This document shows positions 6,134-32,340 of a stretch of DNA of 64,000 nucleotides, one piece after another. The position numbers were made by a program, and so were the translations under genes. Every line of letters starts with the position of its first letter. The first letter of the stretch is position 1. The notes below the pieces were generated by a model. It was not told where the DNA came from, searched no databases, and saw only the letters and a program-made list of their open reading frames with translations. The stretch is taken from contig OY843751.1 of the NCBI GenBank assembly GCA_963693055.1, positions 1,920,001-1,984,000 on the forward strand. Direction: 5' to 3'. Source of the DNA: a bacterium (GTDB lineage Bacteria; Zhuqueibacterota; Zhuqueibacteria; Residuimicrobiales; Krinioviventaceae).

Positions 6134-6192
6134 AGAGTAATGTGTATATAACTGAAATTGATTTAATCTTTCCCGTTTTTTTTAGTTGGTAA

Positions 6193-6230
6193 AAAACAGA
6201 CTGTCTTTATATTTCAAGACAGTCTGTTTT
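6193..6230 (+). terminator. Intergenic hairpin, probable bidirectional intrinsic terminator
   Basis: Perfect 15-bp inverted repeat aaaacagactgtctt / aagacagtctgtttt. Confidence 0.6.
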
Positions 6231-6279
6231 ATATAGCATACATATTATTTTTTTAAATAATAAAACGAAAAGGAGCAAA

Positions 6280-8589
6280 ATGAAACAGGGCTTAATCTCC
6301 ATTATGGTTGTATTTTTATTGTCTCTTTTCTCTTGCAGTCTGAAAACAGAGTGGATTGATTATGTTGATCCGTTGATTGGTACGGGCCCCAGCACAACCA
6401 TAAGCAATATGAAGCATGGTTCTGAACATGTAAATTATGCAAATGCACAGGTCATTCCGGCTGTTACCATGCCATTTGGCATGACAAACTGGACTCCCCA
6501 AACCCGGGAAACTGAAAAAAAATGTAATGCACCATTTTATTATACTGATCCCTATGTTCAGGGATTCCGGGCCAGCCATTGGTTAAGTGGATCTTGTGCT
6601 CAGGATTACGGCAGCTTTACTATTATGCCGGTTACCGGAGAATTAAAATGTTCGCCATCTGTTCGTGGTTCCCATTTTGATCAGAATTCGCAGATTACCA
6701 CCCCTGCGTATTATGCCGTAGAATTGGAAAATTATCAAGTAAAAGCCGAGATGACGGCAACTACCCGAAGTGCAATTTTTCGTTTTACTTTTGAAAATTC
6801 AGATTCTGCATTTATACTTGTAGATACCAACAGCGATGAAGGCCAAGGTTTTATTCAGATCGATCATGAGAAAAATGAGATTGTTGGTTATAATCCTGTT
6901 CACAGACTCTATCAGGGAATTGGTAAATATGCAGGATTTAAAGGATATTTTGTGATAAAGTTCGATAAATCTTTGCAGAATTTTGGTGTTTATCAGGAGA
7001 ATACTCCAAAATACAAGCAAAACAAAATAAAGGATGAAAAAAATATCGGTGGTTTTGTCGCTTTTCAGGTAAATGCCGGTGATGAGTTATTGGTCAAAGC
7101 TGCTTCATCTTTTACCAGTATAGAACAAGCCAGGAAAAATCTGGATACTGAAATACCCCATTGGGATTTTGAGCAAGTACACCAAAATATTCGTGATCAT
7201 TGGAATGATTTATTGGGCCGCTATGAAATTAAATCTCAGAATAAAGAAGATTATGTAAAATTTTACACTTCTATTTACCATTGTTATCAGCAGCCAAGAA
7301 TTGTTAATGATGTTGATGGTACCTACACCGGATTTGCACAGGATGATAATGTTTACCAAGCTAATGGATATAACTATTTTGATGATTTTTCCATGTGGGA
7401 TACTTACAGAGCATTACATCCCTTGTATACCATCATGAACACCAAAGAAACAATCTCTATGATTAAATCCATTGTTTTAAAAGCAGAACAAGGTGGCTGG
7501 CTGCCTATTTTCCCCATGTATAACAGCTATACTTCTGCTATGATTGGGGACCATATGATTTCTCTGGTTGGCGATGCATATTTGAAAGGTATTGATGATT
7601 TTGATGTAGAGACCGCATATAAATATATGCGTCAGAATGCATTCAAGTCTCCGGAATCTTTAAAAGATTATGCAGATGGCAAAGGACGACGTTCTTTGGG
7701 TTCGTATCTCAAATACGGTTACGTACCGGTAGAAGATCCGGTACTTTATGCTTTTCATAAACGGGAACAAAGCTCACGTACACTGGAATATGCCTATGAT
7801 GATTTTGTGCTTGCGGAAATTGCACAAAAGCTGGGAAAAACAGATGATTATAATAAACTCCTTGAGCGGGCGCAATTTTATAAAAATGTATATGACCCCA
7901 ATATCGGTTATCTGCGTGGCAGACATGAAAACGGAAGTTGGGTTGAAAATGCAGATTATAAAAAACCTCAAAAATACGTGACCGAAGCAACTCCATTTCA
8001 TTATTCCTGGTATGTTCCACATGATGTGGCTGGTTTAATTGATATTATGGGTGGAGTAGATTCGTTTACAGCAAGACTGGATACATTTTTTGTAGAAACC
8101 CATTATTGGCATGGAAACGAACCCAGTCATCAGGTGGTTTATATGTACAATTTTGCTGGTCATCCGGAAAAAGCACAACAGACAATCCGAAAAATATTAA
8201 AGGAAGAATATGGTATAGGCCCCGGTGGTTTGAGCGGTAACGACGATTCAGGACAAATGTCTGCTTGGTATTTGTTTTCCGTATTGGGATTTTATCCTGT
8301 TTGTCCGGGTGTTCCTGAATATGTAATTGGAACCCCATCATTTGATACTGTGAACTTGACATTAGAAGATGGAAAGAAATTCAAGATTGTTGCGCACAAT
8401 AATTCTGACGACAATTGTTATATTGAATCTATAAAACTCAATGGTAAACCCTATAACAAGACTTTTATAAATCATAAAGATATTGTCAGCGGTGGAAAAC
8501 TGGAATTTTTTATGACTTCTGATCCCAACACGGGGTGGGGAAGTGAGAAAGACGCTGTTCCTTATTCTTTGTCAAATAGAAAGCAGTAA
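6280..8589 (+). CDS. GH92 alpha-mannosidase family lipoprotein
   Basis: YVDPLIGT, PFGMT, SMWDTYR, HGNEPSH and GNDDSGQMSAW motifs. Lipobox-like LFSC. Confidence 0.93.
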   Translation: MKQGLISIMVVFLLSLFSCSLKTEWIDYVDPLIGTGPSTTISNMKHGSEHVNYANAQVIPAVTMPFGMTNWTPQTRETEKKCNAPFYYTDPYVQGFRASHWLSGSCAQDYGSFTIMPVTGELKCSPSVRGSHFDQNSQITTPAYYAVELENYQVKAEMTATTRSAIFRFTFENSDSAFILVDTNSDEGQGFIQIDHEKNEIVGYNPVHRLYQGIGKYAGFKGYFVIKFDKSLQNFGVYQENTPKYKQNKIKDEKNIGGFVAFQVNAGDELLVKAASSFTSIEQARKNLDTEIPHWDFEQVHQNIRDHWNDLLGRYEIKSQNKEDYVKFYTSIYHCYQQPRIVNDVDGTYTGFAQDDNVYQANGYNYFDDFSMWDTYRALHPLYTIMNTKETISMIKSIVLKAEQGGWLPIFPMYNSYTSAMIGDHMISLVGDAYLKGIDDFDVETAYKYMRQNAFKSPESLKDYADGKGRRSLGSYLKYGYVPVEDPVLYAFHKREQSSRTLEYAYDDFVLAEIAQKLGKTDDYNKLLERAQFYKNVYDPNIGYLRGRHENGSWVENADYKKPQKYVTEATPFHYSWYVPHDVAGLIDIMGGVDSFTARLDTFFVETHYWHGNEPSHQVVYMYNFAGHPEKAQQTIRKILKEEYGIGPGGLSGNDDSGQMSAWYLFSVLGFYPVCPGVPEYVIGTPSFDTVNLTLEDGKKFKIVAHNNSDDNCYIESIKLNGKPYNKTFINHKDIVSGGKLEFFMTSDPNTGWGSEKDAVPYSLSNRKQ

Positions 8590-8627
8590 TAAACTGTGAT
8601 ACTCATTATATCGTAAAGAACAATATA

Positions 8628-8657
8628 CCGTCGCATTTAATTATTGAAATGTGACGG
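8628..8657. terminator. Hairpin after first GH92
   Basis: ccgtcgcattt / aaatgtgacgg stem (one G-U pair). No clear U-tract. Confidence 0.35.
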
Positions 8658-8866
8658 GAATAAACTTGTCTAAAAATGGATACAGTAACAAGAGTGTCTT
8701 TAGAAAAAACATTGAGATTTAATAAAAAATAACTATATTAAAAAATATTTATTTTATCGCAAATATGTTATGAAGCTATTATAAAATAACATAAATTGTC
8801 AGATAACTTTTCTAATTAATTAATCTGGTTTGAAATTATTTTTATTTAATTTAAAACGGATATAAA

Positions 8867-10906
8867 ATGCGTAAACTAGTTTTCTACTTTGTTGTAATAT
8901 TTTTTACATCAATTTTATCTGCAGCAGATTTGGTCAGGTATGTTGATCCTTTTATCTGCTCGGCGGGAGACCACGGTCAACTTGATCCGTCAGCCAATGT
9001 TCCCTTTGGAATGATCAAATTGGGACCCCAGACACTTTCCGGTGGTCATACCGGATATGATTATAATGCCAAAGAAATATCAGGTTTTACCCATACACGC
9101 TTGATGGGTGTAGGTTGTAGTGGCGCAGGTGGAGTATTGCTAACCAAGCCAGGATTAGGTGAGCCAAATGCAGACGCTATAGAATATCTCAAAAACAGCG
9201 AAACTGCTTCTCCCGGGTACTATGCTGTGAAATTCGTGAATGGTATTCAAGCCGATATGACAATTAATCAACATGTGGGTTTGCAGCGTTTTACTTTTCC
9301 TCAATCGGGTAAAGCATATATCATGATTGATCCTGCAGCTTCATTAGAGGAGGTGTTGAGCTCGGAATACGATGTTCGGTCAAATCGTGAAATTACTGGT
9401 AGAATAACTGCTAAAAATAATTGCAGATTTGGTATGTATACCAATTATTATGTAATTAATTTTGATAAGGCATTTGATTCTGTAGTTAAAAAAGATGGCA
9501 AGGTGTTTCTGGTTTTTTCTTTAAAACAAGATGAATCTGTAATCATGAGTGCTGCGCTGTCTCCTTTGAGTGTTGAACAGGCCAGGGAGGATTTGTATTC
9601 AGCATTAATGAATAAATCCTTCGATACTGTTAAAACAGAGGCAAAACAGGCTTGGGAGAATATTTTTGACCGTGTTGTTGTTGAGGGTAAAGAAGAGTAT
9701 AAAACCTTGTTTTATACCCATCTGTATCATTCCTGTTTATCACCTTTCAACAGCACAAGTTCTTCAGGTACATACAAGGGAACGGATAATAAAATCTACA
9801 AGGCAGAAGGCTATACCCATTATGATTCGTGGTCCATTTGGGATACGTTTCGTACAAAATTTCCCCTTGTAACTTTGCTTGAACCCGGGTTGATGCGGGA
9901 TTTCTGTTTGTCGCTGGTTGATTTGTACAATACCGGTTTAACGTATCAACCGAGTAACAGCGAGCCTATTGTTACATGCCGTACAGAACATGCATCCATA
10001 GTTTTGCTGGATGCGTGGAAAAAAGGCATTCCCCTTGATTTAAAAGCAGTATATCCCAAACTGGTAGAAGAAACGAAACAGTTTTCTACCGATTCTCCTG
10101 ATAAAAAGCTGGAAGCTGCTTATGATTACTGGTGTTTGGCAGAGATTGCTAAAATTGTAGGAAATAATGCTGACTATGTAAAATATTCACAAAAGGCCGG
10201 GATGTATAAAGACATCTGGGTGGAAAAATTCAAAGTCATGAATGAAAATGCAGACATCATGCATGGTGATGGTTTATATGAAGGAACACTCTGGCAGTAC
10301 CGCTGGTTTGTTCCTCAGGACATTCCGGGATTGTTGGAATTGTTTGAAGGAAAAGACAATTACACCAAAGATTTGACTTATTTCTATGAAAACGATCTTT
10401 ATAATCACGGAAATCAACCGGATATTCATGTGCCGTTCATGTTTGCATTCAGCAATTCACCCTGGTTATCACAAAAATGGGTAAATGAAATATTGACCAA
10501 AGATACAAAAAATTATTATGGTACCCATGTGAAATGGGACAAGCCTTTTGTTGGTAGAATTTATAACACCAGTCCGCAAGGGTATATACCAGAGATGGAT
10601 GATGATGATGGAACCATGTCTGCCTGGTATGTATTTGCGGCAATGGGTTTATATCCGTATTGTGTGGGTAAACCAGAATACGTGATTACCACCCCTATTT
10701 TTGATAATATTAAAATAAATCTTGAAAATGGTAACCCGTTAGAGATTAAAACCAAAAATTTTTCTGATGAAAATTACTATATTCAATCTGTAACGTTTAA
10801 TGGAAAAAAAATAAATTCGGCAATAATTACCCACGAGCAGCTGATGGAAGGCGGCGTTCTGGAGTATGAATTGGGAAACAAACCCAATACTAAATTATTC
10901 AAGTAA
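8867..10906 (+). CDS. GH92 family glycoside hydrolase (divergent, short form)
   Basis: YVDPFI, PFGMIKLGP, WSIWDTFR, HGNQPD and MDDDDGTMSAW motifs. Signal peptide. Confidence 0.88.
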   Translation: MRKLVFYFVVIFFTSILSAADLVRYVDPFICSAGDHGQLDPSANVPFGMIKLGPQTLSGGHTGYDYNAKEISGFTHTRLMGVGCSGAGGVLLTKPGLGEPNADAIEYLKNSETASPGYYAVKFVNGIQADMTINQHVGLQRFTFPQSGKAYIMIDPAASLEEVLSSEYDVRSNREITGRITAKNNCRFGMYTNYYVINFDKAFDSVVKKDGKVFLVFSLKQDESVIMSAALSPLSVEQAREDLYSALMNKSFDTVKTEAKQAWENIFDRVVVEGKEEYKTLFYTHLYHSCLSPFNSTSSSGTYKGTDNKIYKAEGYTHYDSWSIWDTFRTKFPLVTLLEPGLMRDFCLSLVDLYNTGLTYQPSNSEPIVTCRTEHASIVLLDAWKKGIPLDLKAVYPKLVEETKQFSTDSPDKKLEAAYDYWCLAEIAKIVGNNADYVKYSQKAGMYKDIWVEKFKVMNENADIMHGDGLYEGTLWQYRWFVPQDIPGLLELFEGKDNYTKDLTYFYENDLYNHGNQPDIHVPFMFAFSNSPWLSQKWVNEILTKDTKNYYGTHVKWDKPFVGRIYNTSPQGYIPEMDDDDGTMSAWYVFAAMGLYPYCVGKPEYVITTPIFDNIKINLENGNPLEIKTKNFSDENYYIQSVTFNGKKINSAIITHEQLMEGGVLEYELGNKPNTKLFK

Positions 10907-10942
10907 TCCACCAAACCGAATTGAAAAACAGGAGTATACTTT

Positions 10943-11512
10943 ATGAACACCGCAATTAAAGATGCAATTGCCTTCCATAAACAGGCAATTGATGAATTTG
11001 AAAAAAACAGCCCGGCGTTATTACAAGAGATCGCCGATGCAATTACTAAAAGTCTGAATAACAAAGGTACAGTATACCTTTGTGGTAATGGTGGCTCTGC
11101 TGCCGATTGCCAGCATATAGCAGGTGAATTTGTAGGACGTTTTCGCAAAGAACGTAAAGCGTTGCCGGGAGTGGCATTGTCAACAGATACTTCGGTAATT
11201 ACCTGTCTTGGCAATGATTATGATTATAAAGATATTTTTTCACGTCAGGTTGAAGCATTGATGGACAGCCAGGATATGCTGTGGGCTTTTTCAACCAGTG
11301 GCACATCTGCTAATGTTATTAAAGCCGCAAAAGCAGCCAAAGAAAAAGGTGCCAAAGTTATAGCTTTTACAGGAAAAATCAATAGCGAACTGGAAAAGAT
11401 ATCTGATTACTGTATCTGTGCAAACGCCAACTGGACCAGTACCTCCCAGGAAGTACATCAGCTTTCTTACCATATTATATGTGATATTGTCGAACAGAAC
11501 TTTGTAGAATAG
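10943..11512 (+). CDS. gmhA: Phosphoheptose (sedoheptulose-7-phosphate) isomerase, SIS domain
   Basis: CGNGGSAADCQHIAGE, GNDY, STSG and QEVH...HIIC motifs typical of GmhA. Confidence 0.88.
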   Translation: MNTAIKDAIAFHKQAIDEFEKNSPALLQEIADAITKSLNNKGTVYLCGNGGSAADCQHIAGEFVGRFRKERKALPGVALSTDTSVITCLGNDYDYKDIFSRQVEALMDSQDMLWAFSTSGTSANVIKAAKAAKEKGAKVIAFTGKINSELEKISDYCICANANWTSTSQEVHQLSYHIICDIVEQNFVE

Positions 11513-11527
11513 AAATTTGAGGGAATA

Positions 11528-13432
11528 ATGAAAATTGAACGTGTCCGTGAGATCACTGAAAAGATTAAAGATGTAAAAATCGCTGTTTATGGAGATTTTT
11601 GCCTGGATGTATACTGGCCGCTTGATCCAAAGGGTGGTGAAATGTCAGTAGAAACAGGTATTCAGGCAGAAGCTGTCAGTCAGCAAAGTTATTCGCTTGG
11701 TGGCGCTTCAAATATTGTTGCCAATTTGGCTGCGCTTAATCCTGCTCTGATCAAGGTAATTGGCGTTAGAGGTGATGATGTTTTTGGTAGAGAACTTGAA
11801 CGTCTGTTAAAAGAAAAAAAAGTAGATACCAGTGAACTGTTTATTCAAAAAGAGAATTTTGATACATTCACTTATATTAAGCGTATCCTGGAAGACAAAG
11901 AGCAACCCCGTATCGATTTTGGCTTTTTAAATAAAAGATCTGCTGAAACTGATGAAAAATTATTAGCAGGACTAGAAAAAGCCCTGCAGGAATTTGACAT
12001 TATAATATTCAACCAACAGGTTGTAGGCAGTATACCTAACAAGGCTTTTATTGAAAAGGTAAATGAATTGTGTCAAAAATATCCCGATAAAAATCTGGTA
12101 TTTGATTCACGTCATTATGGCGCCGAGTTTCATTATGTTTTGCGTAAACTGAATGATATTGAGGCAGGTATTTTAAATGGTGTTGAATATGAATCGACAG
12201 ATGTAATTACAGTTCAGGATGCTGAGGTATATGCCAAGGCCCTTTATGAACGTTCTAAAAAACCTGTTGTATTGACACGAGGCGGTCGTGGAATTCTGGT
12301 TTGTGATGAAACCGGAGTTACCGAGATCCCCGGTATTCAATTACTAAAGAAACTAGATACCGTAGGAGCGGGTGATACCACCATTAGTGCCCTTGCATTG
12401 TGTCTGGCTGCTGGTATTGAGACAGTTGATGCTGCCCGTTTTGCCAACATGGCTGCGGCTGTAACGGTGCAAAAACTCTATACAACCGGAACCGCAAATG
12501 CAGAAGAAATAATGCAAATTGCGAGTGACACCAACTATTTATATCAACCGGAACTCGCTGATGATCCACGTAAAGCACAATATTTCAAAGATACTGAAAT
12601 AGAGTTGACATACAGTCAAGATTCTATGCAATTTGGCAGAATTAAATTTGCTGTGTTTGATCATGATGGTACCATCAGTACTCTACGTCAGGGCTGGGAA
12701 GCCATTATGGAGCCCATGATGGTTAAAGCGATTTTGGGTGATCAGTATGAAACCGCTGGTGAAACCCTGTATCATAACGTTGTTCAACGTGTTCGTGATT
12801 TTATAGATCAATCTGTTGGAATTCAGACCATTTTACAGATGGAAGCTCTTGTGGAACTGGTAAAAGAATTTGGTATAGTTCCGGAAGACCAGATCCTTGA
12901 TAAATTTGGTTACAAAGAAATTTACAATGATGCATTGATGATATCTGTTCGTAAACGTATGGCAAAGCTGGAGCGTAAAGAATTGAGCACTCCAGATTGG
13001 ACCATGAAAGGTGCTGTTGAATTTTTGCAATTGATGCGTGAAAAAGGCGTAACTTTGTATATGGCAAGCGGAACTGATAAAGAAGATGTTATTAACGAAG
13101 CCAAAACTTTGGGTTATGCTGACCTGTTTAATGGCGGCATTTATGGTGCTGTTGGCGATGTATCAAAATTTTCGAAAAAAATGCTCATTGAACAGATCAT
13201 GAAAGAGAATAACCTGCATGGATCAGAGCTGGTGGTATTTGGTGATGGCCCTGTAGAAATTCGTGAATGCCGTAAACGGGATGGTATTGCCATAGGTATA
13301 GCAAGTGATGAATTACAACGCCACAGCCTGAATATTGACAAACGTACCCGTTTAATCAAGGCTGGCGCACAGGTTGTCATTCCGGATTATTCTCAGCGTG
13401 ATTATTTGATGGATTTATTATTTAACGGTTAA
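11528..13432 (+). CDS. Fusion of HldE/RfaE-domain-I-like PfkB sugar kinase and HAD-family hydrolase
   Basis: N-terminal half: VYGDFCLD, GGASN, RIDF, DTVGAGDT. C-terminal half: HAD motif I FDHDGT, ASG, GDGPVE. Confidence 0.85.
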   Translation: MKIERVREITEKIKDVKIAVYGDFCLDVYWPLDPKGGEMSVETGIQAEAVSQQSYSLGGASNIVANLAALNPALIKVIGVRGDDVFGRELERLLKEKKVDTSELFIQKENFDTFTYIKRILEDKEQPRIDFGFLNKRSAETDEKLLAGLEKALQEFDIIIFNQQVVGSIPNKAFIEKVNELCQKYPDKNLVFDSRHYGAEFHYVLRKLNDIEAGILNGVEYESTDVITVQDAEVYAKALYERSKKPVVLTRGGRGILVCDETGVTEIPGIQLLKKLDTVGAGDTTISALALCLAAGIETVDAARFANMAAAVTVQKLYTTGTANAEEIMQIASDTNYLYQPELADDPRKAQYFKDTEIELTYSQDSMQFGRIKFAVFDHDGTISTLRQGWEAIMEPMMVKAILGDQYETAGETLYHNVVQRVRDFIDQSVGIQTILQMEALVELVKEFGIVPEDQILDKFGYKEIYNDALMISVRKRMAKLERKELSTPDWTMKGAVEFLQLMREKGVTLYMASGTDKEDVINEAKTLGYADLFNGGIYGAVGDVSKFSKKMLIEQIMKENNLHGSELVVFGDGPVEIRECRKRDGIAIGIASDELQRHSLNIDKRTRLIKAGAQVVIPDYSQRDYLMDLLFNG

Positions 13433-13451
13433 TAAGGTTTTTAGGTGTTGA

Positions 13452-15149
13452 ATGAAAAGAAGACGATTCTTACAACTTGCAGGAGCTGTTTCTTTAACGG
13501 TTGCCAATAGATTTACTTTTGCTTCAGCTTTAACAGAGTCAGATGTGTTTAAAACACTCGTTCGGCAAAATGATGATCTGGTGAAAAAGCTTTTGCAGGA
13601 CCAGGAGACGGATGCATCGCATCAATGGTATGGAGCCATTCGAAACGATAATGGTATACATTATCCCATATTAACGGCTAATTATATCTGCTATCTGGTC
13701 AGTGCTTTTGTTACTCTGGAATCAAAATATTACAAATCCAACGAGTTGGTTAGATCGTTAGAACTTGCTGTGAACTATATGAACAATGTGCAGCATAAAG
13801 ATGGTACCATTGATCTGCTCTCTACGAATTTTCATTCAACACCGGATACTGCGTTTGCTGTGGAATGGATTGCCGTTGCTTATACTATTTTGGACCAATC
13901 ATCCTTTGCTGAAATGAACTCGTCAAAAGACGCATTGGGCCGGTTTTTAAAAAGTGCTGGAAATGCACTAACAGTGGGTGGTATCCATACACCGAACCAT
14001 CGCTGGGTTGTCAGCATGGGATTGGCCCGTATTCATCATTTATTTCCGGATGAAAAGTATGTTAAACGCATTAATCAATGGCTGAATGAGAAAATTGATA
14101 TTGATGTGGATGGCCAATTCAATGAAAAAAGCACTGCTATTTATTCTCCCACAGTTGATCGATGTCTCTTGACGATTGCCAGATTATTAGATAAAACGGA
14201 ATTGTTCGAACCTGTTCGTAGAAATCTCGATATGACAAAGTATTATGTACATCCCAATGGCGATGTGGATACAACCGCATCGAGACGACAGGACCATGGA
14301 AGACGGATGAGCATGGCTCCATATTATTATTCTTACCGTTATATGGCATTAAAAGATAAAAACGGTCAATATGCATCCATGTGCAAATTGATTGAAAATA
14401 CTGCGATTGATGAATTAAAGATGGATTTGCCACTATTGATTGAAGATAAAAGTTTAACACAATCATTAACCCATGTACGTCCTTTACCAACCCATTATGC
14501 CAAACATTTTTCAGGTTCTGAATTGGTAAGGATTCGTCGTGGGGATAAAAGTGCAACAATTGCTGTGAACAATTCTACATTTTTCTCATTTTACAAAGGA
14601 AATGCCGCCTTGACCGGATTACGTTTTGCTTCGTCATTTTTTGGTCGAAAAGGTCAATTCAGTGCAAACAACTTGCAAATTGAGGGGAATAGATATATAT
14701 TAACAAAAAAAGTAACAGGACCCTATTATCAACCTTATCCTGTTGAGGAACTACCGAATGATGGTGACTGGGAGAAGATGCCCAGAGCGAACCGGCCTTT
14801 GAGCGAGATCCAAACCTTGATTTCGGAAATCGAAATTGTAGAAAATGATGGTGAATTTACTGTCAATTTTCATATACACGGCACCGATCGCATTCCTTTT
14901 GCCATTGAACTGGGTTTTCGCGACAATGGAACGTTACAAGGCGTTGTACCGGTTCCCGGTATAGAGAATGCCTTCCTTTTAGAGTCGGGAATGGGCTCAT
15001 TCTCAATTGGTGATGATTTGATTCAATTCGGCCCGGGACAGGCCAAACATACATGGACCCAACTAAGAGGTGCGGAACCAAAACTTGAAGGTAAAAGTGT
15101 TTACATTACCGGTTACACACCATTGCAATATACTTTAAAAATCAGTTGA
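13452..15149 (+). CDS. Tat-exported hypothetical protein, heparinase II/III-like alpha/alpha toroid plus beta-sandwich
   Basis: Twin-arginine signal KRRRFLQ. HTPNHRW and DGQFNEKSTAIY motifs resemble heparinase II/III-type lyases. The fold call is an inference. Confidence 0.55.
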   Translation: MKRRRFLQLAGAVSLTVANRFTFASALTESDVFKTLVRQNDDLVKKLLQDQETDASHQWYGAIRNDNGIHYPILTANYICYLVSAFVTLESKYYKSNELVRSLELAVNYMNNVQHKDGTIDLLSTNFHSTPDTAFAVEWIAVAYTILDQSSFAEMNSSKDALGRFLKSAGNALTVGGIHTPNHRWVVSMGLARIHHLFPDEKYVKRINQWLNEKIDIDVDGQFNEKSTAIYSPTVDRCLLTIARLLDKTELFEPVRRNLDMTKYYVHPNGDVDTTASRRQDHGRRMSMAPYYYSYRYMALKDKNGQYASMCKLIENTAIDELKMDLPLLIEDKSLTQSLTHVRPLPTHYAKHFSGSELVRIRRGDKSATIAVNNSTFFSFYKGNAALTGLRFASSFFGRKGQFSANNLQIEGNRYILTKKVTGPYYQPYPVEELPNDGDWEKMPRANRPLSEIQTLISEIEIVENDGEFTVNFHIHGTDRIPFAIELGFRDNGTLQGVVPVPGIENAFLLESGMGSFSIGDDLIQFGPGQAKHTWTQLRGAEPKLEGKSVYITGYTPLQYTLKIS

Positions 15150-15190
15150 TACTAAACATACCGTCACTCACTTAAACGAGGGAAGATGAA

Positions 15191-16468
15191 ATGAATACCA
15201 CTACCGCGTCGGCAGGCGCAGCGACTTCTGGAAACAGGAGAAAGTACCTTGTACCTTTTTTATTAATGACCCTGTTGTTCTTTTTATGGGGTGCTATCGT
15301 TTCTCTTAACGATATTTTAATACCTCACCTTAAAAGCCTGTTCAACATGAATTATACTCAAACCATGTTGATCCAGTTTTGTTACTTTGCAGCTTATTTT
15401 ACAATGGCAGTTCCAGCTAGTATGATAATTGGCAAGATTGGTTATAAACGAGGAATTGTTGTTGGCTTGCTCGTAGTAGGTGCGGGATGTTTAATATTCA
15501 TACCCGCAGCATATGTGATATCTTATGGCTTGTTCCTGTTTGGTCTTTTTGTTATGGCTACAGGTAATGTGTTTTTGCAAGTAGTAGGTAATCCGTATGT
15601 TGCAATTCTTGGTCCTGCTGAAACTGCATCCAGTCGTTTGAATTTTGCACAGGGTATTAATTCAATTGCTACCGCCTTGATGCCTTATCTTGGTGCTATT
15701 TATATTCTGGGTGATTTTGATAATGCTGCAGATCATGCTGCATCTGTTCAGGGACCCTATATCGTTCTGGCAGGTTTTGCAGTTTTGGTTGCAATTATTT
15801 TTGCAATTCTGCATTTACCCACTATTAAAACCGAGTCTAAAACCAAAGTATCTGGCAGTGTGTTGAGATTTCGTCAACTTCGCTGGGGTGTAATTGCCCT
15901 GACACTTTATGTTGGTGCAGAGGTGACAATTGGTAGTTTTATTGTGAATTTTTTAGGCGAGCCCTATATCGCTGGTATGGCAGAAAAAGCTGCTGCAAAA
16001 TATATCCCCTTGTATTGGGGTGGTTTAATGGTTGGTCGTCTGTTAGGATCAGCTATCCTGCAAAAGATTAAGGCCAATATCGTATTGGTTGTTGCTGCAG
16101 TTATGTCATTTATCCTCGTTTTTGTAACCATTCTGACCCAGGGTAAAGTTGCAATGTGGTCTATTTTGTTAGTAGGACTGTTTAATTCTATCATGTGGTC
16201 TAACATTTTTGCTATGGCAATTGACGGGCTGGGTGAGTATACTAATAAAGCTTCTGGTATTCTGGTTATGGCGCCTGTTGGTGGAGCAATTATTCCATTG
16301 TTGCAGGGTGTATTGGCAGATATTCCGCAAATCGGATTGCATAATTCATATGTATTGCCTTTACTTTGCTATCTGGTAATCCTGTTCTATGGTATTAATG
16401 GATACAAACCTGGTAAAGATGAACTTGATATAAAACTTGATAGTGCACTAAGTGGTGAAGCCGCTTAA
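15191..16468 (+). CDS. FucP/GluP family MFS sugar:H+ symporter
   Basis: LFFLWG, NDILIPHLK, NPYVAILG, RLNFAQ and YVGAEV motifs. About 12 TMs. Confidence 0.92.
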   Translation: MNTTTASAGAATSGNRRKYLVPFLLMTLLFFLWGAIVSLNDILIPHLKSLFNMNYTQTMLIQFCYFAAYFTMAVPASMIIGKIGYKRGIVVGLLVVGAGCLIFIPAAYVISYGLFLFGLFVMATGNVFLQVVGNPYVAILGPAETASSRLNFAQGINSIATALMPYLGAIYILGDFDNAADHAASVQGPYIVLAGFAVLVAIIFAILHLPTIKTESKTKVSGSVLRFRQLRWGVIALTLYVGAEVTIGSFIVNFLGEPYIAGMAEKAAAKYIPLYWGGLMVGRLLGSAILQKIKANIVLVVAAVMSFILVFVTILTQGKVAMWSILLVGLFNSIMWSNIFAMAIDGLGEYTNKASGILVMAPVGGAIIPLLQGVLADIPQIGLHNSYVLPLLCYLVILFYGINGYKPGKDELDIKLDSALSGEAA

Positions 16469-16480
16469 TTGTTAACCGAC

Positions 16481-16526
16481 TGTAATATTTGCAGGGCTCT
16501 GGTGCTCTGCAAATATTGCATTTTTT
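16481..16526 (+). terminator. Rho-independent terminator
   Basis: tgtaatatttgcagggc / gctctgcaaatattgca stem followed by tttttt. Confidence 0.7.
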
Positions 16527-16649
16527 AATATATGTAATATTTACCCCATAATATCCAGAGTTCGTCTATACATTCGGATTCTTTTTTCATTTTGAGTAAT
16601 AATGCGTAAAATTTCAATTGTACAGAATTTTTAACACTGTTAATCCTGA

Positions 16650-17846
16650 ATGAATATGCAAACATGGACAAATAAAATACCTCCTGCACGAAAAGAAGAA
16701 TTGATTCTTTTTTTTCATTCTGCTTTATTTGATGATATTGTACCCTTTTGGGAAAAGTATTCCCTGGATAATGAATTTGGTGGATATCTAACCCGACTCG
16801 AACGCGATGGTAATCCCTATTCCGGCGATAAAGATATGTGGATGACCGGAAGGGAGATCTGGATGTTCAGCCACCTCTATAATCAATACAAACCCGAATC
16901 CCGCTGGAAGGATTCTGCCCGGCTTGGTCTTGAATTTTTGTCGAAATTCGGATTCAAAGATGATGAAAAAATGTATTTCCGTCTGGACAGGCAGGGAAAT
17001 CCCATAGCATCTTCTCTCAGCTTGTTTACCAAAGTTTTTGCATCCATCGGTATGGCAGAATATTGGCAAATTGAGAACGACTCGGATCTTAAAAACAAAG
17101 CGGAAATTTTATATCAACAAATGATGCAAAAGTTTGGTTTACCCAGCGATACACCCATGCTGGGGTATCCCATGAATGCTGAATTTCACTTGCATTCACA
17201 TGACATGTGCAAATTAACTGTGGCCTGGGTTTTTAATAGTATCTGGCCTGATCCACAATACGAGCAGGATTGTGCGGATGCCATTACGTCTATACTGAAT
17301 TTGCACTGGAAACCGCAGGAAAAGGTACTATATGAAAATGTAGCGATGGATGGCACTCCTTTACTGCAATATCCTGAAGGCAGACTTTATCATCCTGGTC
17401 ACAGTATTGAAAGCTCGTGGATGATGATGGAGTTTGCTGATAAAAACAAGGATGAGACGTTGCTGCAAACGGCGATTGATATACTGCTCGCTTCTCTTGA
17501 ACAGGGATGGGATAAAGAATTTGGAGGAATCCGTTATCTCACCAATGTGGATTGGACACCCTGTCACAGTCTGGAAGCCGATTTAAAGTTATGGTGGCCG
17601 CATAGTGAAGCTCTGTATGCGTTAATGCTGGCCTGGGCTTTAACCGGCAGACAAGATATTTCAAATTGGTATACCAAGGTACATGATTATACTTTTAGTC
17701 ACTTTCCTGATCCTGAATATGGCGAGTGGTTCGGTTATTTGAATCGTGATGGTTCACCGGTGTGGACTGCCAAGGCGAACGGCTGGAAAGGATTTTTTCA
17801 TACACCGCGTGCTTTGTTCAGATGTTACCAGTTGTTAAATAAATAA
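16650..17846 (+). CDS. AGE family (N-acylglucosamine 2-epimerase-like) epimerase/isomerase
   Basis: PFWEKYSLDNEFGGY, PGHSIESSW, GWDKEFGG, KLWWPHSE and KGFFHTPR motifs. Confidence 0.9.
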   Translation: MNMQTWTNKIPPARKEELILFFHSALFDDIVPFWEKYSLDNEFGGYLTRLERDGNPYSGDKDMWMTGREIWMFSHLYNQYKPESRWKDSARLGLEFLSKFGFKDDEKMYFRLDRQGNPIASSLSLFTKVFASIGMAEYWQIENDSDLKNKAEILYQQMMQKFGLPSDTPMLGYPMNAEFHLHSHDMCKLTVAWVFNSIWPDPQYEQDCADAITSILNLHWKPQEKVLYENVAMDGTPLLQYPEGRLYHPGHSIESSWMMMEFADKNKDETLLQTAIDILLASLEQGWDKEFGGIRYLTNVDWTPCHSLEADLKLWWPHSEALYALMLAWALTGRQDISNWYTKVHDYTFSHFPDPEYGEWFGYLNRDGSPVWTAKANGWKGFFHTPRALFRCYQLLNK

Positions 17847-17861
17847 TATTCGGGAAAAGAT

Positions 17862-19184
17862 TTGAATCAATTTATAAAAATTTTATCAGTATTCATTATT
17901 GTAATGATGCTGACTAATGGATGTAGTGACCCAGTTCCAAAAAGTGTGCATGTTTCAGATATTGCATTGGGTTGGGCGAAAAATAGCGTGAATACTACAA
18001 TATTGCGCAAGAATTCACTGGTGACTTTTAATGATACGCAATTTACCGCCTTTTATGATTCAACCGGTCATGTAGTACTTGCCAAACGGCAATTGGGCAC
18101 AGATCAGTGGCTGGTTAAGCAAACCCGCTATACCGGCAAAATTACGGATGCACACAATTCCATCAGCATTATGGTAGATGGTGACGGTTATTTGCACATG
18201 GCCTGGAACCATCATAATGACTCACTCCGCTATTGTAAAAGCATTGCTCCCGGTTTATTAGAGTTGACGGAAAAACTATCTATGATAGGTAGGGATGAAG
18301 TTAAGGTCACCTATCCTGAATTTTATCGGTTACCCAGCGGAGATTTAATTTTTCTATATCGTGTAGGAAAATCCGGAGACGGCAAGCTGGTTATGAACCG
18401 ATACAATCTTGTTAAACGAGAGTGGGTACGCTTACAAGACAATCTGATAGATGGTGAAGGAGAGCGAAATGCCTATTGGCAATTTGCAGTAGACTTACAG
18501 GGGACATTTCATCTGTCATGGGTATGGCGTGAAACCGGTGATGTTGCAACCAATCATGACATGTGTTACGCAAAATCCACAGATGGAGGCGTAACCTGGA
18601 TAAAGACAACAGGTGAACTGTGTCAGATTCCTATAAATAAAAACAATGCGGAATATGCTGTTCGTATCTCGCAAAACAGTGAACTGATCAATCAAACATC
18701 CATGTGCGCGGATTCAAAAGGACGTCCTTATATTGCCACTTTTTATCGTCAAGACAAATCATCTATACCGCAATATCACCTGATTTATCATGATGGCAAG
18801 GCCTGGCAGACCCGTCAGGTATCTGACCGAGAGACACCTTTCTCATTAAGTGGAGGAGGAACAAAACGCATTCCCATGAGTCGCCCTGTAATAATAGTGG
18901 ATGATTTGAATGACCGGGATGCGGCATACATGCTGTTTCGAGATATAGAATCTGAAAACAGGGTAATGGTTGCTGTATGTAAAGACTTGACAACCGACAA
19001 GTGGGAAAATAAACCATTGTCAACTAAATCTGTTGGTGCATGGGAACCCAGCTATGATATAGAATTGTGGAAAATGAACAAAATTCTGCATATATTTGTA
19101 CAGAATTCGGGCCAGGGCGATGGAGAAAAATTAGAAACTTTACCATCTCAGATGGTTAGTGTGATAGAATGGAAACCAGAGTGA
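17862..19184 (+). CDS. BNR_4 beta-propeller lipoprotein, PL42 (former GH145)-like rhamnose-glucuronate lyase candidate
   Basis: GWAKNSVNT, DAHNSISI, WNHH, VTYPEF, WVWRET and NHDMCYAKSTDGG motifs, which I recall as similar to BT3686-type proteins. Confidence 0.65.
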   Translation: MNQFIKILSVFIIVMMLTNGCSDPVPKSVHVSDIALGWAKNSVNTTILRKNSLVTFNDTQFTAFYDSTGHVVLAKRQLGTDQWLVKQTRYTGKITDAHNSISIMVDGDGYLHMAWNHHNDSLRYCKSIAPGLLELTEKLSMIGRDEVKVTYPEFYRLPSGDLIFLYRVGKSGDGKLVMNRYNLVKREWVRLQDNLIDGEGERNAYWQFAVDLQGTFHLSWVWRETGDVATNHDMCYAKSTDGGVTWIKTTGELCQIPINKNNAEYAVRISQNSELINQTSMCADSKGRPYIATFYRQDKSSIPQYHLIYHDGKAWQTRQVSDRETPFSLSGGGTKRIPMSRPVIIVDDLNDRDAAYMLFRDIESENRVMVAVCKDLTTDKWENKPLSTKSVGAWEPSYDIELWKMNKILHIFVQNSGQGDGEKLETLPSQMVSVIEWKPE

Positions 19185-19212
19185 TATAACCGAAAAATCA
19201 AAAGGAAAATCT

Positions 19213-20187
19213 ATGAGCGAGAAAACATATATTGGAATTGATATTGGTGGAACCAAAACAGCCGTATTGCTGGTTGATGAAACAGGCAAATTGCTTGAAC
19301 GTAAGCAGTTTCAAACCTTTACAGGTAATGGCGGCTGGCAAAAAAGTCTGGATGAAATTATTTCCATGATAAAGGAACATCAAGATCAAGCTTCTCCTAC
19401 AGCTATTGGTATCAGTTGCGGTGGTCCTTTGAACAGCAGAACCGGCATGATCTTGTCTCCACCCAATTTACCGGGATGGGATAATGTACCCATTATTGAA
19501 CTTTTGAACAAAGAATTTGGTTTACCTGTAGCTCTGGAAAATGATGCAAATGCCGGCGCGTTGGCTGAATGGCGCTTTGGTGCGGGCAAGGGCAGTCGTA
19601 ATATGATATTTTTAACATTTGGCACGGGTCTGGGAGCCGGGCTTGTATTGGATGGCCGGTTATATTCAGGTACCAATGATCTGGGTGGTGAAGCGGGACA
19701 TTTGCGTTTGGATGATGACGGTCCCATTGGTTTTAACAAACGTGGATCTTTTGAAGGCTTTTGCAGCGGCACAGGCTTGTCACAGATGATGGCATTTGAA
19801 CTCTTGTGTCTGACCGAAGAAATTGGTAAAGAAGCCATGCTCGAAAAATATAAAGAACCGGGCCAGGTTACGGGCAAAGATGTTGTGATTTGGGCACAGG
19901 ATGGCGATCCTCTAGCGCTCAAAGTTGTTGAAAAAAGCGGAACCTATTTGGGCAAAGGATTATCGCTTTTAATTGATATTATAAATCCTGAATTGATTGT
20001 TATTGGAAGCATGGGTGTGCGCCTGGGTGACATGCTTTTTGATCCTGCCAGAAAAGTGATTGAAAAAGAAGCAATTCCCGGTGCGGTTGAGGTCTGTAAA
20101 ATTGTGCCCGCGGAACTGGGTGAAAAAATTGGTGATTATGCTGCGTTATGTGTGGCTATTAAAGCAGAAGAAAATAGTATAAATTAA
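19213..20187 (+). CDS. ROK family sugar kinase
   Basis: GIDIGGTK, LENDANAGALAE, GTGLGAG and GEAGH motifs. No N-terminal HTH. Confidence 0.93.
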   Translation: MSEKTYIGIDIGGTKTAVLLVDETGKLLERKQFQTFTGNGGWQKSLDEIISMIKEHQDQASPTAIGISCGGPLNSRTGMILSPPNLPGWDNVPIIELLNKEFGLPVALENDANAGALAEWRFGAGKGSRNMIFLTFGTGLGAGLVLDGRLYSGTNDLGGEAGHLRLDDDGPIGFNKRGSFEGFCSGTGLSQMMAFELLCLTEEIGKEAMLEKYKEPGQVTGKDVVIWAQDGDPLALKVVEKSGTYLGKGLSLLIDIINPELIVIGSMGVRLGDMLFDPARKVIEKEAIPGAVEVCKIVPAELGEKIGDYAALCVAIKAEENSIN

Positions 20188-20213: not shown

Positions 20214-21455
20214 ATGAAACGTTTTACAAGCCGTTTAAATAGCAATTTTGACAATCCAAGCCGACGGGATTTCCTCAAGCAGGGCGGTATAGCAGCTTTG
20301 GGAATTTCATTATCCGCAAATCCATCTTTTGCGGTCAATACAGCACCCAAAAAACTCAGAATAGGTATAGTAGGTGGAAGGTTTGGCGCCAGTTTCTTTT
20401 TTCATGAGCATCCGGATTGTGTTGTTGAGGCTGTGAGTGATTTGAGACCTGAACGACGTGAACACCTCATGAAAACCTATAATTGTTCAAAATCATACAA
20501 CTCTCTGGAAGAGTTGGTTAAAGATAAAGAAATTGATGCGGTAGGCGTTTTTACCGAAGGTCCCAACCACGTAAAGCATGTGCTGGAATGCTTGAATCAT
20601 GGTAAGCATGTGATTTGTGCGGTTCCTGCCTGTTGGGCAACCCTGGAAGAGGCGGAACAGTTGTATAATGCTGTTAAATCTTCCGGATTGATATATATGA
20701 TGGCTGAAACCAGTTATTATCAGCAGCACACTATATCAGCTCGTGACTTTTATAAAAAAGGCGAGTTTGGTGAGATCTATTACTGTGAGTCTGAATATCA
20801 GCACAACGGATTGGAATCTTTATATATTGAAGATGGTAAACGCACCTGGCGTTATGGCGTTGCTCCAATGCATTACCCCACACATTGTACTGCTCATTTG
20901 CTCAGTGTAACGGGTGAACGGCTTGAAAAGGTCTCCTGCAATGGCTGGGGAGATGGAGATCCGATATTAAAAGACAATCCCTATAACAATCCTTTTTGGA
21001 ATGAATCCGCAATGTTTACAACGGATAAAGGCCATGCCTTTCGGGTAAATGTATGGTGGAAAGGAGCGCATTTGGGTTGTGAGCGGGCCCAATGGATTGG
21101 TAACAAGATGAGCTTTTATACCCATAATCCGGTTGGCTTTGGTTCTACTCTGGTTGAAGCTACCAGTGTGATGGGTAAAGATGATGCAGGCTTTGCCCGA
21201 TTAGAAGCAAAAAAGACCCCATATGAGCAGCCGGAATGGTGGAAAACCGATCTGTTACCTGAACCGTTGCGCCATAATAGTGGTCATCATGGATCTCATA
21301 CGTTTTTAACCCACGAGTTTGTAGACGCCTGCATTCATGAACGAAAACCTGTTATTGATATTCTCGAGGCACTGGCATATACAGTACCGGGTATTGTTGC
21401 CCACCAGTCCGCATTGAATGGTGGAGAAAGCAAAACAATTCCACAGTTTGTATAA
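20214..21455 (+). CDS. Tat-exported Gfo/Idh/MocA family oxidoreductase
   Basis: SRRDFLK Tat motif, Rossmann IGIVGGRFG, GKHVICAVP, YPTH, GHHGSH. Confidence 0.88.
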   Translation: MKRFTSRLNSNFDNPSRRDFLKQGGIAALGISLSANPSFAVNTAPKKLRIGIVGGRFGASFFFHEHPDCVVEAVSDLRPERREHLMKTYNCSKSYNSLEELVKDKEIDAVGVFTEGPNHVKHVLECLNHGKHVICAVPACWATLEEAEQLYNAVKSSGLIYMMAETSYYQQHTISARDFYKKGEFGEIYYCESEYQHNGLESLYIEDGKRTWRYGVAPMHYPTHCTAHLLSVTGERLEKVSCNGWGDGDPILKDNPYNNPFWNESAMFTTDKGHAFRVNVWWKGAHLGCERAQWIGNKMSFYTHNPVGFGSTLVEATSVMGKDDAGFARLEAKKTPYEQPEWWKTDLLPEPLRHNSGHHGSHTFLTHEFVDACIHERKPVIDILEALAYTVPGIVAHQSALNGGESKTIPQFV

Positions 21456-21479
21456 TTTATATAGGATTGTTGTACGCGT

Positions 21480-23048
21480 ATGTTTAAGATAATTCGTAAA
21501 ATTACATTACTGCTATTACTTGTTGGATTTTTTAGTTCGGTTTTTTCGGGTCAATATAACATATTGGATTATGGTGCAGTTGGAGACTCTCAATTTTTGA
21601 ATACCCGTGCAATCCAGACTGCAATTGATGCCTGTACTAAATCCGGAGGTGGGACTGTACTTGTGCCGGCGGGTACCTGGTTGACCGGAACGCTACTACT
21701 AAAAGACAACGTGTCCCTTTTTTTAGAATCCGGTGCTACACTTTTGGGCAGTCCCTATTTACGTGATTATCCCCTTACCATACCCGCAATTCGTTCTTAT
21801 ACTGACAATTACACAAACAAGAGTCTGATTTACGCAGAGTATGCAGAAAATATATCCATATTAGGCCAAGGTACAATCAATGGCCAAGGCGAGCTGTTTA
21901 CCGGAGATTATAAAACACGGCCTTATCTCATCCGCATGATAGGCTGCTCGAATGTTACGGTGAAAAACATTTCTTTGCTGCACTCACCCATGTGGGTACA
22001 GCATTATCTCGAATGTGATCATGTTTTGATAGACGGGATAACCGTGCGCAGTTTGAAAGAGCAGAATAATGACGGTATCGACATTGATAGCTGCCATTTT
22101 GTGCGCATTGCCAATTGCGATATCGACAGTGGCGATGATGCAATTGTGTTGAAAAGTACAACGAACCGTATTTGCAGGGATGTTGTGGTTACAAATTGTA
22201 TTTTGAAATCGCAGGCCAGTGCGTTAAAATGCGGGACTGAATCCAATGGCGGATTTGAAAATATTACCATTGACAACTGTGTTGTTCGCGACACTCGTCG
22301 TTCAGGTATCGCCCTGGAGATGGTGGATGGTGGTATTATGGACCGGGTAACCGTATCTAATATCATTGTTGAGAATTCTGGCAGTGCGATATTTGTGCGC
22401 CTTGCCAATCGGGCACGCCCCATTAATGCAGAAAGAGGGCGGTCTTATAATGATTTAAAACGACCGGGTATGGGGACTATGCGAAATATTATGATCAGCA
22501 ATGTACAGGCAACCGGTATTGACAGTATTGGCTCATCCATAACCGGGCAACCAGGGCACCCCATAGAAAACATAATGCTTGAGAATATTCGCATTCAATA
22601 CAATGGCGGCGGTACACGTGAACATGCTGCGAGAGATGTGGGTGAATACCCGGAATCGTATCCTGAATATGATCGCTTGGGCGGCCCATTACCCGCGTAT
22701 GGATTTTATTGTCGTCATGTGAATAATTTGAAATTGGAAAATATAGAGGTTACCTTTGCTCAGGACGATGAGCGTCCGGCTCTGGTTTGTGACGATGTAA
22801 AGCAATTAAAGGTTTTAGATTATAATGCAAAATTATTGCGTAATGTTAATGCAATGATTTATTTTAAAAATGTACAGGATGCATATGTTTCAGATTGCAG
22901 CTCCTTTACTTCGGTTCAACATTTGATTTGGGTAAAAGGTGAACATACACGCCGGATTGTAATTGATGAAAAGAATCCCTGGAAGGTCAACAAAATACTA
23001 GAAATGGATTCAAATGTGTCAAAAAAGGAAATAAAATTTTACAAATGA
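21480..23048 (+). CDS. GH28 polygalacturonase-family glycoside hydrolase
   Basis: YNILDYGAVGD, NNDGIDID, GDDAIVLKS and KCGTES motifs. Signal peptide. Confidence 0.92.
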   Translation: MFKIIRKITLLLLLVGFFSSVFSGQYNILDYGAVGDSQFLNTRAIQTAIDACTKSGGGTVLVPAGTWLTGTLLLKDNVSLFLESGATLLGSPYLRDYPLTIPAIRSYTDNYTNKSLIYAEYAENISILGQGTINGQGELFTGDYKTRPYLIRMIGCSNVTVKNISLLHSPMWVQHYLECDHVLIDGITVRSLKEQNNDGIDIDSCHFVRIANCDIDSGDDAIVLKSTTNRICRDVVVTNCILKSQASALKCGTESNGGFENITIDNCVVRDTRRSGIALEMVDGGIMDRVTVSNIIVENSGSAIFVRLANRARPINAERGRSYNDLKRPGMGTMRNIMISNVQATGIDSIGSSITGQPGHPIENIMLENIRIQYNGGGTREHAARDVGEYPESYPEYDRLGGPLPAYGFYCRHVNNLKLENIEVTFAQDDERPALVCDDVKQLKVLDYNAKLLRNVNAMIYFKNVQDAYVSDCSSFTSVQHLIWVKGEHTRRIVIDEKNPWKVNKILEMDSNVSKKEIKFYK

Positions 23049-23084
23049 TCATAGAATTATGTTTTGATTGAGAAAGGCTGTACT

Positions 23085-25859: not shown

Positions 25860-25868
25860 AATTGATTG

Positions 25869-25905
25869 AAAAGGATCGGTAGTGAAAATAGCCGATCTTT
25901 TTTTT
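25869..25905 (+). terminator. Rho-independent terminator
   Basis: aaaaggatcggt...gccgatctttttttt. Confidence 0.7.
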
Positions 25906-25907
25906 AT

Positions 25908-25936
25908 TTGCTATTCAGTGTTTTTTTTAGTATGGT
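25908..25936 (+). promoter_or_regulatory. Sigma70-like promoter for DUF1080 operon
   Basis: TTGCTA-17 bp-TATGGT, just after the terminator and upstream of ATG 25971. Confidence 0.45.
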
Positions 25937-25970
25937 AAAAAATGAGTAAGAAAAGGGAAGAGAGGCGTTT

Positions 25971-26669: not shown

Positions 26670-26678
26670 GGAACTTTC

Positions 26679-27824: not shown

Positions 27825-27871
27825 AGTCTGCTAGTACTCTTTCACCGGTTAATATAAACCAAAGGAGTAGT

Positions 27872-29080: not shown

Positions 29081-29084
29081 AATC

Positions 29085-32193: not shown

Positions 32194-32340
32194 TAATATT
32201 TTTATGCTTGAATTTATAAATGTTCGTTAAGTGTTGTTGATTAGTTAATGAAATTGCTTTTGAATTAATAAATAATAGTTAGAAAATCTTTTGTTTCATT
32301 GTATGTTTTTTGTTCAATCAAAAGAAAAGGGGATTTTAAA

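Follow-up and report, generated by a model that had tools for sequence, protein, structure and literature searches.

Heptose is an abundant constituent of Gram-negative cell walls. In a search of the open-access literature, we found no description of heptose recycling, catabolism, utilization or degradation, or of a heptosidase. Here we analyse a gmhA gene and the gene behind it, a fusion of a PfkB-type kinase with a HAD domain (the fusion), in a 64,000-nt stretch of a bacterial genome (the window; positions 1,920,001-1,984,000 of contig OY843751.1, assembly GCA_963693055.1). The genome, designated G000, comprises 6.5 Mb in one contig and is 100% complete.

The closest described system is the ADP-heptose pathway (accessible text of PMC10221265), which has in common with this locus the GmhA active site, an HldA-fold kinase with a GAGD motif, a HAD phosphatase following it and the order isomerase-kinase-phosphatase. 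In contrast to that pathway, the kinase of the window belongs to a clade of its own (142 bits on TIGR02198, below the cut-off of 345; quick tree) and carries, in place of an adenylyltransferase, a fused capped HAD that is not related to HAD-IIIA, and the locus has a catabolic context without HldC, HldD or GT9. In Geobacter, the gene of unknown function GSU2086 sits between hldE (GSU2085) and gmhA (GSU2087) and has a like transposon-sequencing (Tn-seq) score, according to the available part of PMC5585712. The same type of trio occurs in many fusion loci, whereas the Geobacter kinase is annotated as a full HldE and the window operon has no GSU2086. The Shewanella Man pathway and GH92-permease-ROK mannoside loci likewise feature mannosidase-family enzymes, a GGP/FucP permease, a sugar kinase and an AGE-fold gene. 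In its accessible part, however, the Shewanella paper names manP, manI and manK and no GmhA, HldA-like kinase or HAD (PMC2996990), and the AGE of the window is not of the mannose-isomerase type.

We conclude that gmhA and the fusion form part of a heptose-phosphate module that is real, widespread and uncharacterised and here lies in a glycan operon of mosaic make-up. These two genes are the conserved core, an accessory module of heptose-directed look, and the nine-gene heptose pathway with heptose-cutting GH92 enzymes proposed in an initial annotation of positions 6280..20187 is overstated. The features on which this rests are as follows.

10943..11512, + strand: gmhA, SIS_2 fold, with active-site residues H58, E62, Q169 and H177 intact and NGGS and STSG loops
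11528..13432, + strand: PfkB-HAD fusion, with an HldA-related kinase (residues 1-335) and a HAD with a helical cap (residues ~365-634)
G000:C1:105708-105755: empty native gmhA slot, a clean loss between PHP-type and BatA-like genes (labels read from sequence)

The window GmhA aligns without gaps to solved GmhA and keeps H58, E62, Q169 and H177, which we take to be Zn ligands. Its score on TIGR00441 (181 bits) lies under the cut-off of 209, as do those of gmhA genes from hldE operons in the same clade (178-198). We predict a canonical-type GmhA with sedoheptulose-7-phosphate/heptose-7-phosphate isomerase activity.

For the kinase, the best match in both sequence and structure was HldA of Burkholderia cenocepacia (PDB 4e84; E 1.8e-13). 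The model of the fusion (predicted local distance difference test score, pLDDT, 88) had HldA as its closest fold (Z 34.3, rmsd (root-mean-square deviation) 2.8, 309 residues aligned; next Z 29.2) in searches that covered residues 14-336 of the full model. The GAGD motif is intact and is kept, together with the HAD motifs DxDGT/S/K/GDGxxE, in 198-200 of 200 aligned rows. Identity to HldA is nonetheless only 24-25%, an extra HAD domain is present, and two motifs of HldE have changed: RISPE to E-x-S-x-E (E38 in 200/200) and DYxK (D[YH]xKG) to NQQ (200/200). We read these changes as a probable loss of a phosphate site, which would suggest a free-sugar substrate. Where the kinase occurs without the HAD, in L156, L159 and L162, its partner is an epimerase of the free-sugar type. 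The fusion is not a bifunctional HldE, its C-terminal domain being a HAD and not an adenylyltransferase.

The HAD retains catalytic motifs I-IV (D378, D380, S514, K550, D573 and E577, in 198-200 of 200 rows). It does not belong to HAD-IIIA, the subfamily of GmhB (TIGR01656/TIGR00213); the best score of any member on any HAD model was weak (E 2.7e-7), and profile and PDB searches returned no close characterised relative. On the beta-phosphoglucomutase (beta-PGM) model TIGR01990, 1 of 18 members matched at E 5.8e-5, with no beta-PGM among 13 PDB matches; a single-sequence model of the HAD alone (pLDDT 39) was unusable for fold search. A GmhB match is missing in 33 of 151 genomes of the phylum, namely in 12/17 with a stand-alone HAD, 3/16 with a fusion and 18/118 others; related genomes do not count as independent, but the 12 span five families. 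Since the HAD tends to occur where GmhB is missing, it is likely a GmhB equivalent, judging from this pattern, which ties the module to heptose phosphates. Stand-alone HADs also lie directly behind HldE-like proteins with GAGE for GAGD (L136, L146 and L147; family f7), in which the adenylyltransferase domain is intact, the kinase is degenerate and an active-looking rfaE1 is encoded elsewhere. A mutase role sparing the kinase in family f7 is unsupported, as these genomes carry rfaE1-type kinases elsewhere. In L153-L155, a stand-alone HAD follows an adenylyltransferase domain with the kinase between them. One run in these loci and in L163 holds LacI, an SSS importer, a DHDPS-family aldolase, the adenylyltransferase, kinase, HAD and GH38, with BNR and gmhA in addition in L153; it amounts to an almost full set for heptose activation within an operon of catabolic look. 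G000 itself has a second fusion (L001, G000:C1:5462779-5465985), 48% identical and located behind an AGE of the 8h1k type, whose HAD carries changes in motifs II and IV, which would fit decay of the HAD with retention of the kinase.

The fusion family is large, with 3055 proteins at E <= 1e-60 among 7993 scored. Neighbourhoods were counted in the best 80 of 545 confirmed fusion loci, which come from several phyla and are in many cases cut by contig ends. The neighbours were the GSU2086 family (53 loci), 8h1k-type AGE (37), gmhA (17), GH92 (10), ROK (9) and GH38 (3), and 66/80 loci hold at least one of the first three. Structure 8h1k is presumably the mannose 2-epimerase of Runella, for which a structure paper exists. 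ADP-heptose genes were rare (adenylyltransferase-like 1, GT9 1, gmhB 0). Importers (SSS, MFS), LacI/AraC regulators, SusC/D, GH92 (up to three) and GH38 were recurrent, as were phosphoesterases, aldolase-family genes and DUF4432. The link between gmhA and the fusion exceeds chance. Its gmhA partners come from at least three clades and its GH92 partners from at least four in quick trees without bootstrap (the GH92 tree omits two short GH92 fragments and one of 358 aa), so the linkages arose repeatedly. Five of the ten GH92 cases trace to one Cytophagales clade and do not count as independent; for comparison, 5% of random 22-kb stretches of G000 overlap a GH92. The 8h1k-type AGE and gmhA seldom coincide (2 loci with both). 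The heptose-directed module of the initial annotation thus survives in part: gmhA and the kinase/HAD are conserved together with importers and alpha-mannosidase-fold enzymes, not LPS (lipopolysaccharide) genes, whereas a pathway over the whole span is not. We rejected the latter because the Tat protein (1/80), BNR_4, Gfo and GH63 (each 0/80) are hardly or never found near the fusion and the AGE found there is of another type.

Genome-wide search of G000 returned a single gmhA, the one in the window. It is 61-62% identical to gmhA of Phycisphaerae hldE-gmhA-gmhB-GT9 operons and 43-47% identical to native gmhA genes from its own family, and a quick tree groups it with Phycisphaerae-type copies (support 100); the gene was apparently acquired from another phylum. 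Composition (GC and GC3) was discarded as a sign of transfer, the values of these genes being inside the G000 range. The PHP gene and the BatA-like gene, which flank the native gmhA in 6/6 other family members examined, abut in G000 and its sister G097, the two genomes of the genus. Because the native gene was lost and one copy is left, no gene other than the window gmhA could plausibly provide heptose-7-phosphate for LPS, and its product probably also serves LPS synthesis. A sole gmhA serving LPS synthesis is one of the findings that the initial annotation had named as speaking against its own reading.

Elsewhere G000 encodes an rfaE1 kinase (361 bits on TIGR02198, over the cut-off) followed by a GmhB-like HAD-IIIA (TIGR01656 match), an HldE-like protein (G000:C1:4321460-4322998) whose adenylyltransferase domain is over cut-off while its kinase domain is degenerate. 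It also has seven full-length GT9 matches outside the window, but no second gmhA. A genome-wide profile search gave no HldD match over cut-off. As the initial annotation stated, no adenylyltransferase, HldD or GT9 was present among the 38 window ORFs (open reading frames) scanned against Pfam, a scan that excluded shadow and short ORFs, and neither these genes nor a heptosyltransferase are linked to gmhA and the kinase there.

The GSU2086 family, the commonest neighbour of the fusion, is over cut-off in 120/151 phylum genomes, compared with 1/151 for HldD, and GT9 lies within 1.5 kb of the gene in 10 of the 30 best loci (L230-L259). The family is possibly a non-orthologous replacement of HldD or another LPS-heptose enzyme. 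It matches the nickel-pincer-dependent TIGR00300 weakly and has no PDB sequence match. Lar genes lie near 5/80 fusion loci, with larE-, larB- and larC-like genes directly upstream of GSU2086 in L041, L048, L064 and L104 and larC also in L088. These would hint at a nickel-pincer dependence, but LarC is absent from G000.

The ORFs and family assignments given for the nine genes agree with our ORF and profile results, all lie on the + strand, and gmhA does begin 36 bp 3' of the GH92b stop (10906 to 10943). That GH92 had been called divergent, which holds for its sequence (28% identity to GH92a) but not for transcription, both genes being on the + strand. The other features of the span are listed below.

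6134-6280: strong hairpin between a PQQ-propeller/malectin gene and GH92a (z -4.6)
6280..8589, + strand: GH92a, alpha-mannosidase family, with a lipoprotein-type N-terminus (TIGR01180 575 bits, cut-off 250)
8629..8658, + strand: 11-pair hairpin 3' of GH92a, a possible terminator, with no T-run on + (z -2.9, 1/200 shuffles; fold of 8590-8680)
8712..8739, + strand: sigma-70-like site, 10/12 match, weak evidence, in the 277-bp AT-rich gap between GH92a and GH92b
8867..10906, + strand: GH92b, secreted-type GH92 (TIGR01180 356 bits, cut-off 250), catalytic motifs kept
13452..15149, + strand: Tat, a 565-aa twin-arginine-type protein with an RRRFL N-terminus and no Pfam family
15191..16468, + strand: GluP/FucP-type MFS sugar:H+ symporter (FucP; TIGR01272 298 bits, cut-off 203), last gene of the likely unit
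16481..16520, + strand: intrinsic-terminator-like hairpin, 17 pairs and a T-run, directly 3' of FucP (z -6.2, 0/200 shuffles)
16650..17846, + strand: AGE, N-acylglucosamine 2-epimerase type (285 bits to 6f04 versus 61 to 8h1k)
17862..19184, + strand: BNR_4, close to BT3686-type alpha-L-rhamnosidase (NF052497 641 bits, cut-off 700; 518 bits to 5muk)
19213..20187, + strand: ROK kinase, 50-54% identical to nine ROKs beside gmhA in Bacteroidota loci (same broad subfamily)

From these signals the likely transcription unit is GH92b-gmhA-kinase/HAD-Tat-FucP, closed by the terminator after FucP, and GH92a would probably be a unit of its own; a promoter scan found 65 sites against 54.5 +/- 8.1 expected from shuffles, no overall excess. 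The span is a mosaic of units, with AGE, BNR_4 and ROK downstream of the terminator. The co-directional run extends beyond 20187 with Gfo, GH28, GH63-like, DUF1080, URO-D-like, MFS, Gfo and PelW-like genes (20214-32020), and URO-D-like genes also lie near the fusion in 7/80 loci. A SIR2_2-like ORF occupies low-GC sequence at 32299-33210, and DDE transposase genes at 36882-38156 and 56129-57637 break up the carbohydrate gene cluster of the window.

GH92a keeps the acid Glu, WDT Asp and base Asp motifs. The two window enzymes have the GH92 fold and catalytic motifs in common with CcMan5 and Bt3990-type alpha-mannosidases. GH92b has as its nearest solved structure CcMan5 (2xsg, 291 bits), a phosphodiester mannosidase, but carries E472 where CcMan5 has Gln, a residue whose position at the catalytic acid we presume to be important. 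Among 79 loci of GH92b relatives, which include many near-identical gut copies and 26 loci under 10 kb, gmhA was nearby in 1, the fusion in 0 and GH28 in 33, and we rejected GH92b as a conserved partner of the module. The GH92-gmhA-kinase synteny expected by the initial annotation is accordingly not conserved for GH92b, the GH92s beside the fusion coming from various clades, and a heptose-cutting GH92 is unsupported. We found no sequence signature separating heptoside from mannoside activity in GH92 and, in the papers searched, no heptoside activity of a GH92 enzyme.

The remaining neighbours also point away from a single pathway. In 17 loci of Tat-protein homologues other than the two g1 loci, examined with 1.5-kb flanks, the fusion was near in none; the family occurs in 16/151 phylum genomes, has no PDB sequence match, and has an Atlas lead to ulvan-lyase-N-like clusters (score 0.95). 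The nearest orthologue of the window AGE (65%) is paired with a ROK orthologue on a 9-kb contig without gmhA. The closest relatives of the window ROK (69-70%, in G058 and G084) lack gmhA nearby and have FucP/GH92 or AGE instead. In G058, orthologues of GH92a (55%), FucP (74%, between the other two) and ROK (69%) stand together with GH28, a GH63 orthologue is near, and gmhA is absent from the cluster; that contig also carries a kinase-only gene at a distance of ~30 kb. AGE, BNR_4 and ROK, lying beyond the terminator, with an AGE of the GlcNAc-2-epimerase type and GH92a-FucP-ROK occurring without gmhA in G058, are thus not supported as pathway parts, and none of AGE, BNR_4, GH92a, GH92b, FucP and ROK offers evidence for heptose. 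At a further locus, ROK, a long-type gmhA, GH38 and a GH92b relative stand together without the fusion (L285:3593-10000).

Our tentative preference, held with a little less than even confidence, is that gmhA and the fusion are an accessory module salvaging free manno-heptose, the sole GmhA likely also supplying heptose-7-phosphate for LPS. Observed are the genes themselves, a single gmhA with its native slot empty, the gene linkages and the motifs; the steps are proposed. A manno-configured sugar released outside the cytoplasm would enter through FucP, and cleavage of heptosides by GH92b is no more than a guess. Free heptose would be phosphorylated at C1 by the kinase, which is related to HldA but has lost the basic motifs of HldE. 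The 7-phosphate would be taken off or moved by the HAD in its likely role as a GmhB equivalent. Any heptose-1-phosphate could go on to the HldE-type domain encoded elsewhere in G000 for adenylylation. Least supported is a further step in which GmhA would convert heptose-7-phosphate, coming either from a mutase activity of the HAD or from the downstream ROK, to sedoheptulose-7-phosphate, which would be burnt. GmhA acts reversibly, and a sole gmhA is not fatal to salvage because one isomerase can serve both directions; the accessible text of PMC11056994 holds no confirmation of that reversibility. The salvage reading stays the best because the fusion duplicates rfaE1 and gmhB and occurs without ADP-heptose genes. 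A separate rfaE1-type kinase was found in 9/22 fusion-bearing genomes tested (mostly Bacteroidota), and three related Flavobacteriaceae metagenome-assembled genomes (MAGs; G151, G155 and G165, completeness ungraded) carry GSU2086-fusion-ROK-gmhA without adenylyltransferase, rfaE1 or GT9. In the 50 of 80 fusion genomes covered by the adenylyltransferase search, the match was missing in 7/17 with gmhA in the module versus 3/33 others.

Several observations weigh against salvage. The same search found an adenylyltransferase match in 40/50 fusion-bearing genomes, so that the product could simply be ADP-heptose, and GT9 matched in 18/22. The MAGs without ADP-heptose genes count for less given their relatedness and ungraded completeness. 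The gene order isomerase-kinase-phosphatase is the anabolic one, the sole gmhA is nearest to biosynthetic gmhAs, and further basic residues (K118, R195 and K207) are invariant in the fusion family. A GmhB-like HAD would favour the direction to heptose-1-phosphate, and a 7-phosphatase works against catabolism; the flux into the pentose phosphate pathway that had been put forward is not borne out by this GmhB-like genomic behaviour. GH92b relatives are not tied to gmhA, and the -1 pocket of GH92 is described as buried, a backbone amide holding O6 (available part of PMC5930347). The GSU2086 gene is outside the window operon, its G000 copy standing alone 0.84 Mb off (G000:C1:1091678-1092790). The initial annotation's complete scheme, in which a GH92 cuts heptose and the net flow runs into the pentose phosphate pathway, appears unlikely. 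We hold equally doubtful the broader scheme in which GH92/GH38 strip alpha-manno-heptose from LPS or S-layer glycans of other bacteria, the fusion is a free-heptose 1-kinase and phosphoheptomutase, GSU2086 is a heptose C6-epimerase replacing HldD phylum-wide, GmhA runs in reverse into the pentose phosphate pathway and, in this genus, a scavenging gmhA displaced the housekeeping one.

A purely biosynthetic block, in which GmhA, kinase and HAD lead from sedoheptulose-7-phosphate via heptose-7-phosphate and the 1,7-bisphosphate to heptose-1-phosphate, is a serious but rather unlikely alternative. It would have been acquired by transfer and inserted in a glycan operon among unrelated mannoside and uronate genes, and its arrival would have freed the native gmhA to be lost. 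This would account for a sole gmhA grouping with hldE-operon copies, for the gene missing after the PHP gene in both genomes of the genus when 6/6 relatives have it, and for the anticorrelation of the HAD with GmhB, including family f7 with its rfaE1-type kinases and no GmhB in 5/5; the adenylyltransferase gene adjoining the split kinase and HAD in L153-L155 fits as well. Yet the block would be redundant with rfaE1 and gmhB in G000, the module occurs in three MAGs without any ADP-heptose genes, the HldE motifs are lost in its kinase and LPS genes are almost never in fusion loci; even the L153 operon carries LacI, an SSS importer, an aldolase-family gene and GH38.

Two further explanations look elsewhere for the substrate. 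Mannose (hexose) utilisation as in Shewanella would have GH92s free mannose, FucP import it, ROK or PfkB phosphorylate it and the SIS protein or AGE isomerise it, the heptose look being only ancestral. Such a scheme is likely right for GH92a, FucP and ROK, which stand together without gmhA in G058; recurrent GH92, GH38 and mannose-2-epimerase-type AGE partners, the ROK-gmhA-GH38-GH92 group without the fusion in L285, and manP, manI and manK themselves (accessible part of PMC2996990) agree with it. For the module it is improbable: the window AGE reaches 34 bits on the mannose-isomerase model NF051846 (cut-off 600), GmhA is canonical-type and a sole copy, and the links to GSU2086 and adenylyltransferase and the GmhB pattern stay unexplained. 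GmhA as a substitute phosphomannose isomerase is weakened by a type I isomerase match already in G000 and in 5/5 ROK-gmhA genomes tested. About as improbable is another sugar or sugar phosphate, such as a different heptose epimer, a heptulose or phosphorylated phosphodiester-glycan fragments, a range widened by the epimerases. Two putative epimerases are the commonest fusion partners, GH92b is nearest a phosphodiester mannosidase, phosphoesterases, aldolase-family genes and DUF4432 recur, and AGE-type and gmhA partners rarely coincide. On the other side, nothing singles out a particular substrate, lineage may account for the exclusion between AGE and gmhA, and GH92b lacks the Gln of CcMan5.

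The module is large and spread across several phyla, including cultured named species (Dyadobacter, Draconibacterium), and the question it poses is testable with three soluble enzymes. Even if the biosynthetic alternative were true, it would involve two likely non-orthologous replacements in heptose biosynthesis, the HAD for GmhB and possibly GSU2086 for HldD.

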